Source: Candidatus Dormiibacterota bacterium (GTDB taxonomy: Bacteria > Chloroflexota > Dormibacteria > CF-121). From it: a stretch of DNA of 30,701 bases. The DNA is taken from the NCBI GenBank assembly GCA_036403615.1, contig DASWQQ010000173.1:1-30701 (forward strand), written 5' to 3'. The position numbers and the translations under genes were made by a program. Shown here piece after piece: positions 16,857-23,294 of the stretch (position 1 is the stretch's first letter; each line of letters opens with the position of its first letter). The notes beneath the pieces were generated by a model. The model saw nothing but the letters and a program-made list of their open reading frames with translations, did not search any database and was not told the DNA's origin.

Positions 16857-18278
16857 GTGAAAACCAAGGCGCCGCGGACCGTTTATGCCTGCCAGCAGTG
16901 TGGCAACCAATCCTCAAAATGGGTCGGCCGTTGCCCGGAATGTGGCAACTGGAACAGTTACGTAGAGGAGCAGGCGGCCGCGGAGCCCAGCAGATCCACC
17001 CTCCGGCGCCGGACGGTGTCCAGTGCCCAACCCATGCCGCTGGCCGAGGTGCAGTTCACGCAGGCGAACCGGCTACGCCTCGGGATGCGTGAGCTCAGCC
17101 AGGTTCTCGGCGGCGGGATCGTGCCCGGGTCACTCGTGCTCGTCGGGGGCGATCCCGGTATCGGGAAGTCGACCTTGCTGCTCCAGCTGGCGAGCGAAGT
17201 GGCAGCCACCTACGGGCCGGTGCTCTATGTCTCCGGGGAAGAGTCGGTGCAGCAGCTCAAGCTTCGCGCCCAGCGCCTGGGCGTCCACGGGGACCGGCTG
17301 ATGGTGCTCGCCGAAAATGACCTTGAGAGCATCATGGAGCACCTCACCGCTTCCCGTCCGATGATGGCCGTGATCGACTCGATCCAGACCGTCTTCCTGA
17401 ACGGGGTGACGTCGGCACCCGGCAGCGTCAGCCAGGTTCGTGAGTGCGCAGGCCAGCTGATGCTGCTGGCCAAGAGCAGCCAGATTCCGATCTTCCTGGT
17501 GGGCCACGTCAACAAGGAGGGGGCGATCGCCGGACCTCGCGTACTGGAGCACATCGTCGATACCGTCCTCTACCTGGAAGGCGAGCGTCACCACAGCTTC
17601 CGCATCCTCCGGAGCCAGAAGAACCGCTTCGGGTCCACTGACGAGATCGGGGTTTTCGAGATGCTCGACAGCGGCATGAAGGAGGTGGTCGACCCCAGCC
17701 GTGCCTTCCTCCAGGACCGGTCCCTCACCGAGGTCGGCAACGTCGTGCACGTTGCGCTCGAAGGCAGCCGGCCGCTGTTGGTCGAGCTGCAGAGCCTGGT
17801 CAGCCCGACCGCCTTCACACCGCCCCGTAGATCGGTTAACGGCATCGACCTCAACCGGCTTCACATGCTGGTAGCCGTACTCGAGAAGCGCGCCCGCCTC
17901 TCACTGGGGCAGCAGGATATCTTCGTAAACGCGGCCGGCGGGGTCAAGGTGGTCGAACCTGCGGTCGACCTCGCGGTGGCGCTGGCGATCGTCTCCAACG
18001 TACGTAACCTGCCGACAGGCTCAGACCTTGTTGCCATCGGCGAGCTCGGTCTGAGCGGGGAACTGCGCCGAGTTAATCAGATCGAGCGGCGGCTCCTGGA
18101 AGCGCACCGTCTCGGATTCAAGCGCGCCATCATCCCGAGCTCGGCCGAGATCCGGTCAAAGGAGCTGAAAGGAATGGAACTCCGGCGAGCGGATACCATC
18201 CAGGAGGCCATCCGGCTGTGCTTTGGCGAAAACAAGGGCCGGTCCGCGGACTTGCCGCCAGGGCCGGGCCCCAGGTAA
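16857..18278 (+). CDS. radA: DNA repair protein RadA/Sms
   Basis: C4 zinc finger (CQQCG...CPECG), Walker A GGDPGIGKST, KNRFG motif and C-terminal Lon-like domain (GELGLSGELR). TATAGT lies 12 nt upstream. Confidence 0.97.
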   Translation: MKTKAPRTVYACQQCGNQSSKWVGRCPECGNWNSYVEEQAAAEPSRSTLRRRTVSSAQPMPLAEVQFTQANRLRLGMRELSQVLGGGIVPGSLVLVGGDPGIGKSTLLLQLASEVAATYGPVLYVSGEESVQQLKLRAQRLGVHGDRLMVLAENDLESIMEHLTASRPMMAVIDSIQTVFLNGVTSAPGSVSQVRECAGQLMLLAKSSQIPIFLVGHVNKEGAIAGPRVLEHIVDTVLYLEGERHHSFRILRSQKNRFGSTDEIGVFEMLDSGMKEVVDPSRAFLQDRSLTEVGNVVHVALEGSRPLLVELQSLVSPTAFTPPRRSVNGIDLNRLHMLVAVLEKRARLSLGQQDIFVNAAGGVKVVEPAVDLAVALAIVSNVRNLPTGSDLVAIGELGLSGELRRVNQIERRLLEAHRLGFKRAIIPSSAEIRSKELKGMELRRADTIQEAIRLCFGENKGRSADLPPGPGPR

Positions 18279-18699: not shown

Positions 18700-19818
18700 A
18701 TGCGCGTGGAACGGGTCTTCCGGCTTCTTGGCCTTTTGTTGGGACTTATAGCGGGCGTGGAATACGCCTCATTCATCCTCTCGGAAGCAAGCATCCACGG
18801 CTACACGCTGCGAGCGGTCGTTCTCCTGCTGACCGCACTGGCCGGCGCGCTCTTCGGCTTCTTCGGGCTACCCTACGTCACGACCAAGCCCTTCTTCTGG
18901 CTCGAAGATAAGCTAAACGTCACCCCGCTACCCGACCTGGTAGCGGCGACCGTCGGTCTTCTGGTCGGATTGCTTCTGGCCGCCCTGGTCGGGCTGTTCC
19001 TGGCCAAGCTGCCCTGGTACCTGGGCTTCGTGATCTCCCTGATGGTCGCCCTCGTCTTCGCCTACTGGGGCGTCACGCTCGGCCTCAACCGGCGCAACGA
19101 GATGATGGCACTGGTCCTCGGGCCAGCTCGAGCGGCTGGCGCCGTGGGCAGCCGGCCGCAGGCCGCCACCGTGCTGCTCGATACCAGCGTCATCATCGAT
19201 GGGCGGATCATGGACATCGCTCAGACCGGTTTCCTTCGCGATCATATGCTGGTACCGCATTTCGTCCTCGCCGAGTTGCAGTACATCGCCGACTCCAGCG
19301 ACACGCTGCGACGCAATCGTGGGCGCCGCGGCCTCGAGGTACTGAACCTGCTGCAGAAGGAGCCCCTGGTCGATATCGAGTTCACCGACGATGACGTACC
19401 CGACGTCCCGGAGGTCGATATCAAGCTGATTCGCCTTGCCCGTATCCGGGGCGCCGCCATCATGACCAATGACTACAACCTGAACCGGGTGGCCCAGCTG
19501 GAAGGAGTAAAGGTCCTCAACTTGAACACGCTGGCCAACGCGCTCAAGCCGGTGGTCATCCCCGGTGAGGAGATGAACGTCCAGTTGATCAAGGATGGCA
19601 AGGAACCGAACCAGGGAGTCGGCTACCTGGATGACGGCACCATGATCGTTGTCGAGAACGGCCGCAAGTACATGAACCAGACGATCGGAGTGGTTGTCAC
19701 GTCGGTACTCCAGACGGCGGCCGGGCGGATGATCTTCGCCACGCCGGCGAGTGAGTCGACGCTCGAGCGACGGCCCAAGCCTTTACGCAAGATCCAGGGC
19801 GGAAGCTCCAGTCACTAA
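18700..19818 (+). CDS. Membrane-bound PIN/TRAM domain protein (YacL family)
   Basis: Four N-terminal TM helices, PIN motifs LLDTSVIIDGR, ELQ, RGRRGL and TNDYNL, TRAM motif QGVGYLDDGTMIVVE; RBS AAGGAGGTG. Confidence 0.93.
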   Translation: MRVERVFRLLGLLLGLIAGVEYASFILSEASIHGYTLRAVVLLLTALAGALFGFFGLPYVTTKPFFWLEDKLNVTPLPDLVAATVGLLVGLLLAALVGLFLAKLPWYLGFVISLMVALVFAYWGVTLGLNRRNEMMALVLGPARAAGAVGSRPQAATVLLDTSVIIDGRIMDIAQTGFLRDHMLVPHFVLAELQYIADSSDTLRRNRGRRGLEVLNLLQKEPLVDIEFTDDDVPDVPEVDIKLIRLARIRGAAIMTNDYNLNRVAQLEGVKVLNLNTLANALKPVVIPGEEMNVQLIKDGKEPNQGVGYLDDGTMIVVENGRKYMNQTIGVVVTSVLQTAAGRMIFATPASESTLERRPKPLRKIQGGSSSH

Positions 19819-20185
19819 ACCGGTCGTTGTAAGGGTCGACTCCGGACCTGGCTTCATCGAAGAACTTCGCCTGGCGGCAGTTGCTTCCGCAGACGCGACC
19901 CGCTTCGTGATCGGGCGGCGCGAAGCCCCTGCCGAAGCCCTGGCCTCCGCGGAGCCGGTGGTAGCCGTCGGGCAGCCGGTGCGTGATACCTGCAAGGAAG
20001 TGGTCGAAGGAATAGCCCGCCGAACGGTTCCCCGTGAGTCGCTCGTCGAGCTCACCGGACCCTGGCTTTTCTCAAATGCCGCGCTGCGCGGAGCGCTGGA
20101 TCGAGTTGGGGAAGCCGCCCCCGAGGACCCGCTCGCGCTCTGCCGCGTCGCCGGTCTTCGCATTCGCGTCATCCTGGCTGGATGA
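19751..20185 (+). CDS. Truncated IspD-like protein retaining the beta-arm (start codon uncertain; could be a pseudogene)
   Basis: PVRDTCKEVVEGIARRTVPRESLV matches the IspD beta-arm consensus PVxDTxK...TxxRxxL. No N-terminal GxGxR loop, HD or NxK motif. The stop overlaps the next ATG (ATGA). Confidence 0.6.
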   Translation: MSRRSSDGPSLYARSRAEAPVTKPVVVRVDSGPGFIEELRLAAVASADATRFVIGRREAPAEALASAEPVVAVGQPVRDTCKEVVEGIARRTVPRESLVELTGPWLFSNAALRGALDRVGEAAPEDPLALCRVAGLRIRVILAG

Positions 20186-20862
20186 CTGTCGCGGCGGTGA
20201 TCGTCGCGGGCGGTCGTGGCACCCGCATGAAGGCGAACGTCAACAAGGTATTTCTCGAGGTGGGAGGCCGTCCCATCATCGAGTGGTCGCTTGCGCTCTT
20301 TGAACAGGCCAGGAGTGTGGAGACTGTCGTAGTGGTGGCCCAGCCCGCCGATATCGCCGGCTACCAGTCCCTCATCTCCCGCTTTCCCAAGGTGGCGCGA
20401 GTCGTGCCCGGTGGCGACCTGCGCCATCGGTCCGAGTTCGCAGGCGTGGCGGCGCTCTCGGGCCGCATCGACGCCGGCGAGATCGATCACGTGCTGGTAC
20501 ACGACGCCGTTCGCCCTTTTGCGACGCGGCGGTTGGTCGAGCGTCTGCTGGCAGCGATGCCCGATGTCCAGGCCTGCATCCCGGGCCTGCCGCTACCCGC
20601 CTCGGCCGTAGTGGCAACTGATGGCTGGGTCACCGGCTTCCCCAATGGGCTGTGGTGTGTTCAGACACCGCAGGCTGCCGACGCCACCTGGTTGCTGGAG
20701 GCTCACAACAGGGCGGCTCGGGCCGGCTTTGTTGGCACCGATACTGCTTCCGTAATCGAGTGGGCGGGTGGCGAGGTCCGCGTCATCACGGGCGAGCCGG
20801 ACAACATCAAGATCACGACGCCGGCCGACCTTCTCCTGGCCGAGGCAATCGCCGGGCGCTAA
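20182..20862 (+). CDS. IspD/TarI-family cytidylyltransferase (CTP-binding core intact, beta-arm motif absent)
   Basis: AGGRGTRM...NK, GGDLRHRS, HDAVRP, QTPQ and NIKITTPADL. Confidence 0.88.
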   Translation: MTVAAVIVAGGRGTRMKANVNKVFLEVGGRPIIEWSLALFEQARSVETVVVVAQPADIAGYQSLISRFPKVARVVPGGDLRHRSEFAGVAALSGRIDAGEIDHVLVHDAVRPFATRRLVERLLAAMPDVQACIPGLPLPASAVVATDGWVTGFPNGLWCVQTPQAADATWLLEAHNRAARAGFVGTDTASVIEWAGGEVRVITGEPDNIKITTPADLLLAEAIAGR

Positions 20863-22013
20863 GGCGTGACGCGGCGGCTCAAGCCGTGCAGCATCAGGAG
20901 GGCGATCGCGAGTACGGTCAGGATTGGTCCCAAGAGCCGCAGACCGAACACCTGCAAGAAGACACCGATGACCGCCGGAAACCCGCCGGCGCCGAGCGTT
21001 CCGGCCGCCAGCTGGTAGCCAACGGCATGGGCCGTCATGCCACGTCCGAGCCGGACCGGCGTGAGGGACAGAAGCAGCGGAAAGATGACGCTGACGGACA
21101 GTCCTAGCAACGGCAGAGCGATGAAGGCCGAGACGAGTGGGGGAGCGAGCCAGAAAGACAGCGTGCCGATCAGCACGGTGCTGAGGCAAACGTCGAGCAG
21201 GCGGTTGGCATCGAGGCGATGGCCCAGCATGCCGAGTCCCATCCGTCCGGCCGCCAGGCTGATCCAGAATAGTGACAGGCTCAGGCCGGCGGTGTTGGCA
21301 GAGAGGGAGCGTCCCGAGGTGAGGTGGGTAAAGGACCAATCGCCCGTCGCCCCTTCGATCCCACTTCCCAGGAGAAAGACACCCACCAGCAGGATCAGGA
21401 GTCGCCGGCGATTCGATGTTGCCTTTTGGCCTGCCGACTGCAGTCCAGGGGCTTCCGCGGGGACCACTCCGCGCGGCCAGCCGACCAGGACGCCAACGCC
21501 CGCAAAGAGGATCGCCATGGCGAGAAAAGCGCCACGCCATGAGCCGGTGGCCCGCAGCGACCCCACGACCACCGGGGGACCGAGGGCGGCGCCCACTGCC
21601 CATGACGCGTGCAGCCAACCCATGAAGCGCACCCCCCGGGTGAGCGACACCTGTGCGTTGACGGTCGCGTCGATCAGCCCCGACCCGACGCCCACCAGCA
21701 GGCTGGCGGCCGCCAGGACCACCAGGTTTGAGGCGACGGCAAACCCGAGCGTGCCCGCGCCGGCCGTCGCGCAGGCGGCCATCAACAAGACCGGGGTCCT
21801 CACGCGGGTGCTGAGTGCGCCGGTCGCGGTGCTGACCACGAAATAGGCCGCCGTCCAGCCGGCGATAACGATTCCCAGCCCTGATAGTGGGGCCTCCAGG
21901 GAGACTCGCATGTACGGCCAGGCGACGCCGATCGCGCCGGCCGGAAGGCCCAGGCCGATGAAGGAGAGAAGGGGGGTCAGAACCTCGAGCGTGGCGGCCC
22001 GGCGTCCGATCAC
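20859..22013 (-). CDS. MFS transporter
   Basis: About 12 hydrophobic helices with MFS-like spacing (G.LIDATVN, LHASWAVGAALGP, GRMGLG); GTG start. Confidence 0.88.
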   Translation of the reverse strand: MIGRRAATLEVLTPLLSFIGLGLPAGAIGVAWPYMRVSLEAPLSGLGIVIAGWTAAYFVVSTATGALSTRVRTPVLLMAACATAGAGTLGFAVASNLVVLAAASLLVGVGSGLIDATVNAQVSLTRGVRFMGWLHASWAVGAALGPPVVVGSLRATGSWRGAFLAMAILFAGVGVLVGWPRGVVPAEAPGLQSAGQKATSNRRRLLILLVGVFLLGSGIEGATGDWSFTHLTSGRSLSANTAGLSLSLFWISLAAGRMGLGMLGHRLDANRLLDVCLSTVLIGTLSFWLAPPLVSAFIALPLLGLSVSVIFPLLLSLTPVRLGRGMTAHAVGYQLAAGTLGAGGFPAVIGVFLQVFGLRLLGPILTVLAIALLMLHGLSRRVTP

Positions 22014-22128: not shown

Positions 22129-22827
22129 GTGGAGGTACAAGCGATCATTCCGGCCGCCGGGGCCGGGCTTCACAACGGGGAGTCCAGTGCCAGGGTTCTG
22201 ATGTCGGTCGGTGGCCGTTCCCTCATACGCCGTACGCTCGAAGCGTTCGATCACTTTCCCGAAATCACCGGCATTATCGTGATGGTCTCCCAGCGCAATC
22301 TCCTCCAGGTCACGCGCGAACTCGAGTCGGATGGCTGGCGGAAGCCGATCGACATCCAGCTTGGCGGCGAGCGGCGCCAGGATTCGGTCCGTCTCGGGCT
22401 GGAGAGCCTGCGGCAGAGTCCCCCTGACTTCGTATTGATTCATGACGGTGCCCGGCCGCTTGTAACCGACGAGTTGATCCACCAGGGCCTGGAAACGGCG
22501 CGCGAATTTGGCGCGGCGACCGCCGCCGTGCCTGTCCGCCATACCTACAAGCACGTCGACACCTCCGGCTTCGTTCACGGCACTGTCGAGCGGGCCGACT
22601 TGATGCAGGTCCAGACCCCGCAGGTCTTTCGCTACGACTGGATCCTGGAGGCCCATGAGAAGGCGGTACGCGAGGGGATCGTCGTCGAGGATGACGCTGA
22701 ACTGATCGAGAAGCTGGGCAAGCCGGTCAAGGTCTACTCAGGCTCCTATGGCAACCTCAAGGTCGCGACCCACGAGGATGCACTGATGGTCGAGGCCCTG
22801 CTTGCCGCCGGCCCCGTGTGCGTGTAG
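22129..22827 (+). CDS. ispD: 2-C-methyl-D-erythritol 4-phosphate cytidylyltransferase-like protein with altered CTP-binding loop
   Basis: GGERRQDSV, HDGARPL, QTPQVF and NLK; sits directly before ispF. The N-terminal loop reads AAGAGLHNG...AR instead of AAGxGxRM...PK. Confidence 0.8.
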   Translation: MEVQAIIPAAGAGLHNGESSARVLMSVGGRSLIRRTLEAFDHFPEITGIIVMVSQRNLLQVTRELESDGWRKPIDIQLGGERRQDSVRLGLESLRQSPPDFVLIHDGARPLVTDELIHQGLETAREFGAATAAVPVRHTYKHVDTSGFVHGTVERADLMQVQTPQVFRYDWILEAHEKAVREGIVVEDDAELIEKLGKPVKVYSGSYGNLKVATHEDALMVEALLAAGPVCV

Positions 22828-23294
22828 GTAGCGGTTTCGATCTACACCGGCTGGAGGTCGGCCGGCCGCTGGTCCTTGGTGGCGTCGAGCTTCCCTGGGA
22901 TCTGGGGTTGAGCGGCCACAGCGATGCGGACGTCATCTGCCACGCGCTGATCGATGCGCTCTGCGGCGCCGCCGGAATCGGCGACATCGGCACCCTTTTC
23001 CCGGACACCGACGCGGCTTACAAGGATGCCCGCAGCCTCGACCTGCTGCGCGAGGTGGCGGAGCACTGCCGTCGAGCCCGCTGGGTGGTGGAGAACGCGG
23101 ACGTCACCCTGATTGCCCAGGCGCCGAAGGTGGCCCCTTATCGAGAGGCAATTCGTAGCAACCTCGCCGCGGCCCTCGGCGTCGACACCGCCGCAGTCGG
23201 CGTCAAGGGCACCACGACCGATCACGTGGGGGCGATCGGCCGAGGGGAGGCGCTGGCGGCGCAGGCGGTGGTCCTGCTGCGCGAGCTGCCATGA
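22818..23294 (+). CDS. ispF: 2-C-methyl-D-erythritol 2,4-cyclodiphosphate synthase
   Basis: RVGSGFDLH, GHSDADV..HA..DAL, GDIG..FP and VKGTT. Confidence 0.96.
   Translation: MRVGSGFDLHRLEVGRPLVLGGVELPWDLGLSGHSDADVICHALIDALCGAAGIGDIGTLFPDTDAAYKDARSLDLLREVAEHCRRARWVVENADVTLIAQAPKVAPYREAIRSNLAAALGVDTAAVGVKGTTTDHVGAIGRGEALAAQAVVLLRELP

Follow-up and report, generated by a model that had tools for sequence, protein, structure and literature searches.

Two coupled ispD paralogues of Candidatus Dormibacterota as candidate subunits of a heterodimeric IspD

The ispD locus and its three paralogues

We analyzed a 30,701-nucleotide stretch of DNA (contig DASWQQ010000173.1 of assembly GCA_036403615.1, hereafter the window) from a metagenome-assembled genome, 73% complete, of a soil bacterium of Candidatus Dormibacterota. 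The window carries three genes related to ispD, the gene for MEP (2-C-methyl-D-erythritol 4-phosphate) cytidylyltransferase, which we name D0, D1, and D2. They stand on the plus strand in the order radA, PIN/TRAM, D0, D1, D2, ispF, and cysS, with a gene for a major facilitator superfamily (MFS) transporter placed between D1 and D2 on the minus strand. D1 (20182-20862) encodes an IspD of full length whose core is canonical and whose β-arm is degenerate, and is the proposed catalytic subunit. D0 (19751-20185), directly upstream, encodes a truncated pseudo-IspD of 144 aa when read from the GTG at 19751, with conserved coding from 19817. The stop codon of D0 and the start codon of D1 share the tetranucleotide ATGA (20182-20185), an overlap that is read directly from the sequence and points to translational coupling. 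D2 (22129-22827) encodes an IspD that is coupled to ispF. An earlier note on this DNA, made from its letters alone, had described the core motifs and the replaced arm of D1, the coordinates, and the ATGA overlap, and direct reading agrees with it on all of these.

IspD is normally a homodimer with interlocked β-arms, in which each active site brings together the core of one subunit, with the residues Arg20, Lys27, Asp106, Arg109, Thr165, and Lys213, and arm residues of the other. Contact within the dimer is made mainly by the β-meander arm (PMC5099578). The C1 and C3 hydroxyls of the methylerythritol moiety are hydrogen-bonded by Thr140, and in the Francisella tularensis enzyme the phosphomimetic substitution T141D at the equivalent position costs ~75% of the activity, while the T141E variant has no activity (PMC3111433). 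Two lysines, Lys27 and Lys213, are critical and stabilize the transition state (Richard et al. 2004, as cited in PMC5020098).

The core and the arm are unequally preserved in D1 and D0. D1 scores above the cut-offs of both family profiles, with 194.4 vs. 181.3 bits for TIGR00453 and 184.8 vs. 27 bits for Pfam IspD (PF01128), and carries the motifs GGRGTRM..NK, HDAVRP, QTPQ, TDTAS, and DNIK. Its arm reads LPLPASAVVATDGWVTGFPNGLW (20587-20655, plus strand), is four residues below the canonical length and holds no equivalent of Lys142 or Arg157; the pattern PVxDTxK...TVxR, by which the full Thr140/Lys142/Arg157 set was sought, is not found in it. D0 falls below both cut-offs, with 20.3 bits for Pfam IspD and 26.7 bits (E 3e-6) for TIGR00453, and matches the IspD profile at positions ~98-197 only. 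Its β-arm (19976-20050, plus strand), with PVRDTCKEVVEGIARRTVPRESLV encoded at 19976-20047, reads PVRDTCKEV...RRTVPRESL and holds residues that correspond to Thr140, Lys142, and Arg157 of the E. coli enzyme. No core motif is present in D0 on alignment to E. coli IspD, which upholds the earlier claim that it is devoid of nucleotide-binding motifs.

The same division of residues is observed in the relatives. A residue table was built from 18 D0, 18 D1, and 11 D2 orthologues of public genomes, with positions numbered by E. coli IspD (K-12 annotated record). Arg20, Lys27, Asp106, Arg109, Thr165, and Lys213 are all kept in 18/18 D1. At the position of Lys142, D1 has Val (13) or Ala (5) and in no case Lys (0/18); at that of Arg157 it has Pro (17) or Ser (1) and in no case Arg (0/18); and at that of Thr140 it has Thr (9), Ser (4), Ala (3), or Gly (2). 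Conversely, Thr140, Lys142, and Arg157 are present in all 18 D0 orthologues, and the arm residues T58, K60, T70, and R73 are among the columns in which the D0 alignment shows no variation. Arg20 and Lys27 occur in none of the D0 proteins, Asp106 and Arg109 are not conserved, Thr165 is replaced by Gly (16), Ser (1), or His (1), and Lys213 is deleted or changed to Pro. The alignment of the three paralogues to E. coli IspD hence displays strictly complementary conservation, and the residues of D0 and D1, taken together, make up the full set of IspD catalytic and substrate residues.

Selection on D0 and the start of its reading frame

D0 is intact in 6/6 same-genus genomes, a count that takes in the unpublished genomes G002 and G003, and in most genomes of the same family. 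Its length ranges from 150 to 177 codons and varies by in-frame insertions and deletions only; the alignment and codon table include the unpublished loci L026 and L027, and the public loci by themselves still give 150-177 codons. The ratio of nonsynonymous to synonymous substitution rates (dN/dS) in the D0 frame, counted from the codon that follows the PIN/TRAM stop, is 0.25-0.33, vs. >0.9 in both other frames. When D0 is divided into parts, the N-terminal part has a ratio of 0.25-0.33 and the part from the arm onward one of 0.26-0.29; the ratio is lowest at the arm itself (0.11-0.17) and reaches 0.29-0.36 after it. In the region shared with PIN/TRAM, selection is confined to the PIN frame (0.06-0.15). 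Three unpublished genomes, G002 and G003 (loci L026, L027, L086, and L087) and G049 (L046), entered the synteny tables and the first dN/dS runs. They were excluded from alignments A2, A3, and A5, the residue table, the tree, the arm analysis, and the repeat dN/dS run, in which the frame-specific selection on D0 was unchanged, and no conclusion rests on them.

The 122-residue D0 protein encoded at 19817-20182 was modeled by AlphaFold2 with a mean predicted local distance difference test (pLDDT) score of 92.8 and a predicted template modeling (pTM) score of 0.83. All of the 50 PDB matches listed for this model (50/50) are IspD-family cytidylyltransferases, with TMq values of 0.64-0.72. D0 retains ~120 residues of the IspD fold, including the strand that is encoded directly after the PIN/TRAM stop. 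The earlier note had portrayed D0 as almost nothing but the arm and the following helix; it was right about the arm and too low about the size, given this extra strand and the extent of the fold.

The substitution pattern indicates that D0 is a maintained gene under purifying selection, not a relic. A decaying fragment of a duplicated ispD, untranslated and kept open by the high G+C content, would be in keeping with the weak hidden Markov model scores of D0, with the lack of a canonical start codon in most relatives, and with a public gene call of only 92 aa. Such a pseudogene is nevertheless contradicted by selection that is specific to the D0 frame (dN/dS 0.17-0.33, vs. >0.9 in the others) and by a frame that survives many in-frame insertions and deletions. 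The invariant arm residues, the high pLDDT of the model, and the dozens of related forms described below argue in the same direction, and we consider this explanation highly improbable.

When 1.84 billion representative proteins were searched with a profile, 230 matches were obtained at E<1e-10; dozens of these are D0-like proteins, short (62-138 aa) or long (190-250 aa), that have the features described here. The sole match of a word-indexed protein search with D0 was the window's own 92-aa gene call, and public records label D0-type proteins simply IspD. The scan of the genome collection used S-type D0 sequences only and therefore reached Dormibacterota only. A full-length D0 (~190-250 aa) occupies the same slot in G005, which belongs to the same genus as the window, in G009, and in genus g2. 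In these long forms, the phosphate loop is gone and the arm is kept; core residues that are absent or deleted in the short forms are here replaced, HDxxRP being changed, for example, to QQPNRP and NIK to N[VIL]P. When compared with them, the D0 of the window is the same protein minus ~60 core residues and the C-terminal helix. D0 and D1 probably originated by duplication, followed by complementary degeneration.

A G+C-rich palindrome (CCCTCCCC...GGGGAGGG) is inserted in frame within some D0 genes, namely in the linker of the g5 forms (L028-L037) and in the long D0 of g2 (L044, L045, and L049). It is translated as PPLxGEG[RQ]xGG in g5 and as tandem SSLPLAGTGTN units in g2, and resembles a small repeat element that is put up with in a loop of the protein.

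Upstream of D0 lies the gene for a PIN/TRAM (YacL-like) membrane protein (18700-19818, plus strand; Pfam PIN E 2.6e-7), which is 85-94% identical to its relatives. If the GTG at 19751 is the start of D0, the last 68 nucleotides of PIN/TRAM lie within the D0 open reading frame (ORF). In each of the 20 S-type loci that cover PIN/TRAM, D0 lies in the +1 frame with respect to that gene, and its conserved coding sets in with the second base of the PIN/TRAM stop (window 19733-19903; L023-L037, L040, L044, L045, L049, and L084-L104). This stop is located at codon 28-29 of the D0 frame, mostly as NNC TGA C and, in the window, as CAC TAA A. Beyond the overlap, an ATG, GTG, or TTG first occurs at codon 32 to 89, 4 to 60 codons past the stop. 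Selection acts on the codons that come right after the stop, and these codons form a strand in the AlphaFold2 model. In the window, the start candidates are the GTG at 19751 and the GTG at 19904, where the public gene call (92 aa) begins. The long D0 genes of g4 and g2 are likewise open right after the PIN/TRAM stop, without a canonical start. Ordinary starts are observed in other lineages (TTG in L105, ATG in L038 and in L042); therefore, D0 is probably free-standing, with non-canonical initiation here.

Several other modes of initiation were considered and rejected. The relatives share no conserved canonical start, and the near-cognate start envisaged at codon 33 is a plain Leu/Val codon with synonymous variation. 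An overlap of the CTGA type, as in the outgroups, would put the gene in frame PIN+2, and D0 is in PIN+1. A relay via a five-codon mini-ORF can be traced in L023 and is not conserved, and neither a classical slippery +1 site nor a well-spaced Shine-Dalgarno-like stimulator was seen.

In the other Dormibacteria families, the start of the single ispD overlaps the PIN/TRAM stop as NTGA in 15/17 genomes: nine of these overlaps are CTGA, three ATGA, two TTGA, and one GTGA (loci including L041, L052, L053, L055, L057, L061, L062, L065, and L073). With CTGA in nine genomes, CTG appears to start the essential ispD, and these families seem to tolerate non-AUG codons at coupled starts. As D0 is in the +1 frame and has no near start codon in most Dormibacter-type genomes, a +1 shift from PIN/TRAM could also make D0. 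Such a programmed shift or hop at the PIN/TRAM stop would yield a PIN/TRAM-D0 fusion tethering a heterodimeric IspD to a membrane protein, with D1 produced by ATGA-coupled reinitiation; we judge this arrangement distinctly improbable.

Proposed pairing of D0 with D1 and the place of D2

D0 and D1 are adjacent, with an NTGA overlap, at all loci examined. The overlap is ATGA in 20/21 S-type loci and GTGA in the other one, as well as in the distant L105. The earlier note had proposed a joint function for the two genes. In every relative examined they stand side by side without disruption, the overlap being ATGA with few exceptions, and dN/dS in the D0 frame is well below 1. In the tree, each paralogue is monophyletic (Shimodaira-Hasegawa-like approximate likelihood ratio test support of 99, 99, and 100). 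The D0 and D1 trees are congruent inside, and both paralogues lie outside the class's own IspD clade; D2 nests in this clade as a sister to the IspDs of another family. G005 carries a long D0 and a D1 that is only 48% identical to that of the window, together with a D2 (87%) and a PIN/TRAM (92%) of the kind usual in the genus; D0 and D1 were therefore exchanged as a unit. Retention of a dead paralogue under purifying selection and its co-inheritance with the catalytic one are traits of pseudoenzyme-dependent heteromeric enzymes, and D0-D1 shows both.

Pairs with the same division of motifs are found in other contexts as well, after clpC in L083 and on a short contig in L081. In L105/L106, the order is radA, PIN, D0 (138 aa, TTG start), D1, ispF, and cysS, with the GTGA overlap, and L107 shows a long D0, D1, ispF, and cysS, with no D2 between. 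In L105 (3915-3970), the public D1-type call begins at an internal Met and loses the phosphate loop; the true start is the GTG in GTGA.

Structure prediction of D0 together with D1, run with user-made alignments, gave an interaction prediction score from aligned errors (ipSAE) of 0.85 (0.85, 0.85, and 0.84 in the individual runs), vs. 0.00 for the best of three controls, so that a heterodimer of the kind suggested in the earlier note is predicted. In the benchmark, the ipSAE mark is reached by 58/80 solved complexes and by 2/110 mismatched pairs, counts that hold only roughly for user-made alignments. The predicted complex is an arm-to-arm dimer like that of IspD. Its interface comprises residues 50, 55-80, and 104-118 of D0 and residues 129, 133, 138-161, 185-190, 193, 198-202, 210, and 212 of D1. 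In the model, the D0 arm (T58, K60, and R73) is placed against K210 of D1, the equivalent of Lys213, and against T186-D187.

Complementary conservation, selection, and the predicted complex thus favor the suggestion that D0 supplies in trans the arm residues that D1 has lost, and we think it probable that D0 and D1 together make up an obligate heterodimeric MEP cytidylyltransferase, each being one of its two subunits. In a D0:D1 dimer, the core of D1 and the arm of D0 would form one complete canonical MEP site, and the reciprocal site would be dead, because of which the D1 arm and the D0 core would both be free to degenerate. The arm is the least constrained part of D1, with a dN/dS of 0.25-0.32 vs. 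0.12-0.17 elsewhere in the protein. The ATGA overlap would couple the synthesis of D0 and D1 at ~1:1. No account of a heteromeric or pseudoenzyme-dependent IspD came up in a literature search, in line with the earlier note, which knew of no described example.

Several observations weigh against this proposal. The ipSAE score may come partly from the model's memory of IspD homodimers; it reflects a resemblance to the IspD dimer and is without power to tell D0:D1 from D1:D1 or D1:D2. The reach of Thr140 and Arg157 into the site of the partner subunit is taken from what is reportedly described for the E. coli IspD structure. In g1, g5, g4, and g2, most D0 genes lack an ATG, GTG, or TTG close to where conserved coding begins. 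Finally, Thr or Ser is present at the Thr140 position in 13/18 D1 arms, and Lys or Arg is found near the Arg157 position in a few of them; D1 homodimers may therefore have residual activity.

Such a homodimer could act on MEP with a reduced role of the arm, or on another polyol phosphate, and D0 would then be a non-catalytic regulator or stabilizer, with an arm that merely serves for binding. In agreement with this, D1 by itself passes the TIGR00453 equivalog cut-off, a hydroxylated residue is retained at the Thr140 position in the majority of D1 given above, and the D1 arm is still somewhat constrained. An arm for binding only would not, however, predict that the substrate-contact residues T140, K142, and R157 are invariant in D0 (18/18, and in distant metagenomic forms too) and variable or absent in D1. 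Nor does it sit well with the contacts that the D0 arm makes with K210 and T186-D187 of D1 in the predicted complex. We consider a self-sufficient D1 unlikely.

D2 possesses a full arm, PVRHTYKHV...GTVERADL, and intact HDGARP, QTPQ, and NLK motifs; its phosphate loop reads GAGLHNGESSARV. In the window, Arg20 is changed to His (22171-22173) and Lys27 to Arg (22192-22194). Because of this loop, D2 fails the full IspD motif set, despite a score of 200.6 bits on TIGR00453. Position 20 is His in all of the 11 orthologues of the residue table, and position 27 is Arg in eight and Lys in three; T140, K142, R157, D106, R109, T165, and K213 are present in 11/11. The loop is altered in two ways in the family, either by R20H (g1 and g5) or by K27N with R20 kept (g2: L045, L048, and L051). 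The arm is the most constrained region of D2, with a dN/dS of 0.03-0.06 vs. 0.07-0.09 elsewhere, and D2 is 82-90% identical between genera. The sequence comparisons point to D2 as the vertically inherited, ancestral ispF-linked copy of IspD. Either it functions with its unusual loop, or it is drifting to a non-catalytic role, possibly that of a second arm donor for D1.

The D1 site could accordingly be completed in vivo mainly by the arm of D2, with D0 being secondary or condition-specific, or D1 could pair with either. The perfect arm of D2 and its strong constraint tell against a dedicated D0:D1 enzyme, and if the core of D2 were of lesser importance, the erosion of its phosphate loop in two ways would be anticipated. 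This reading is opposed by the genomes in which no D2 was found (G008, G012, G009, and G013, discussed below) and by its absence beside D0-D1 in L105 and L107. Moreover, D0 lies directly upstream at every D1 locus examined, it is D0, not D2, that is translationally coupled to D1, and the full conservation of D106, R109, T165, and K213 suggests that D2 is still an enzyme. We consider a leading role of the D2 arm quite unlikely.

No D2 was found in G008 (91% complete), G012 (89%), G009 (94%), and G013 (94%), which are drafts in which absence is not proven. IspG and DXR are encoded in all four genomes, HMG-CoA reductase was not found in any of them, and the MEP pathway seems to be the one on which they rely. 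In a Pfam IspD search of G008 and G009, which did not include G012, D1 and D0 were the only IspD-family genes; the other matches, short, N-terminal, and in larger frames, are taken to be unrelated nucleotidyltransferases. As no other IspD-family gene was found in G008, G009, and G012, the IspD step would fall there to D0 and D1. A fourth, distant IspD-like paralogue, with 147-151 bits on Pfam IspD, is located outside the ispD locus in G013 (G013:C14:46630-47277, L047) and in G051 (G051:C169:11498-12145), and is another candidate for the IspD step in G013. Since the phosphate loop of D2 is eroding and D2 is lost in several lineages, the putative D0:D1 enzyme is probably the main IspD of the family.

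Neighboring genes, related systems, and meaning for IspD

The remaining genes of the locus have a regular arrangement. radA (16857-18278, plus strand) precedes PIN/TRAM, and the MFS transporter gene (20859-22013, minus strand; Pfam MFS_1 E 1.6e-22) is convergent with D1. ispF (22818-23294, plus strand) overlaps the end of D2, is 72-91% identical to its relatives and always adjoins cysS. The order PIN/TRAM-D0-D1-(MFS)-D2-ispF-cysS is repeated across the family. The MFS gene parts D0-D1 from D2 in most relatives, that is at most g1 and g5 loci, and is absent from g2 and g3; it is split into several frames in G004 (L024 7118-8178) and reduced to fragments in G005 (L050 5648-5957). In G006, whose assembly has 4 contigs, radA (L025 3104-4514) is in five frame-shifted pieces, and these breaks may be assembly indel errors. 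The locus is present in soil DNA sequencing runs only; RNA runs contain ~5% of the sampled words.

The principle of a dead paralogue that is needed by its catalytic partner is already known in other enzyme families. The paralogues of trypanosomatid deoxyhypusine synthase form heteromers with shared active sites. In ADP-glucose pyrophosphorylase (GlgC/GlgD or the small and large subunits) and in GMPPA/GMPPB, a catalytic nucleotidyltransferase is associated with a degenerate paralogue, like D1 with D0; unlike D0, the non-catalytic subunit of these enzymes is regulatory and full length, and they are outside the IspD family. These non-catalytic subunits are not known to give active-site residues in trans. 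In the cis-prenyltransferase NgBR/DHDDS, a pseudoenzyme partner gives a short conserved motif in trans, with a fold and a chemistry that are unrelated to IspD. The prozymes, known from trypanosomatid AdoMetDC/prozyme (PMC5201418) and from PRMT1 ENZ/PRO (bioRxiv 10.1101/776112), resemble D0 as dead paralogues kept by selection, for which a need by the partner is proposed. These systems are eukaryotic, whereas D0-D1 is bacterial and translationally coupled, and D0 is proposed to donate substrate-binding residues directly, not to relieve autoinhibition.

The closest comparison remains the homodimeric IspD, as represented by the enzymes from E. coli (1I52 and 1INI), Bacillus subtilis (5DDT), and Mycobacterium tuberculosis (2XWN). 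The D0-D1 system has in common with it the fold and an arm-mediated interface (PMC5099578; predicted here for D0:D1), as well as the genomic position beside ispF and cysS. It differs in that the residues are split over two polypeptides, of which D0 is truncated and dead, and in that one of the two sites would be completable.

IspD is an essential enzyme of the MEP pathway, a drug and herbicide target, and a homodimer in every structure found. If the proposed pairing is true, the Dormibacterota locus shows a route from a homodimer with shared sites to an obligate heterodimer, in which the core and the arm acting in trans are carried by separate, co-translated chains. Each gene would have lost the complementary half of the active site, one chain having shrunk to ~120 residues, and the pair would constitute a natural experiment on the arm residues that are required in trans. 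Because D0-type proteins are labeled IspD and the phosphate loop of D2 is not canonical, the wrong gene may be credited when pathways are reconstructed for Dormibacterota.

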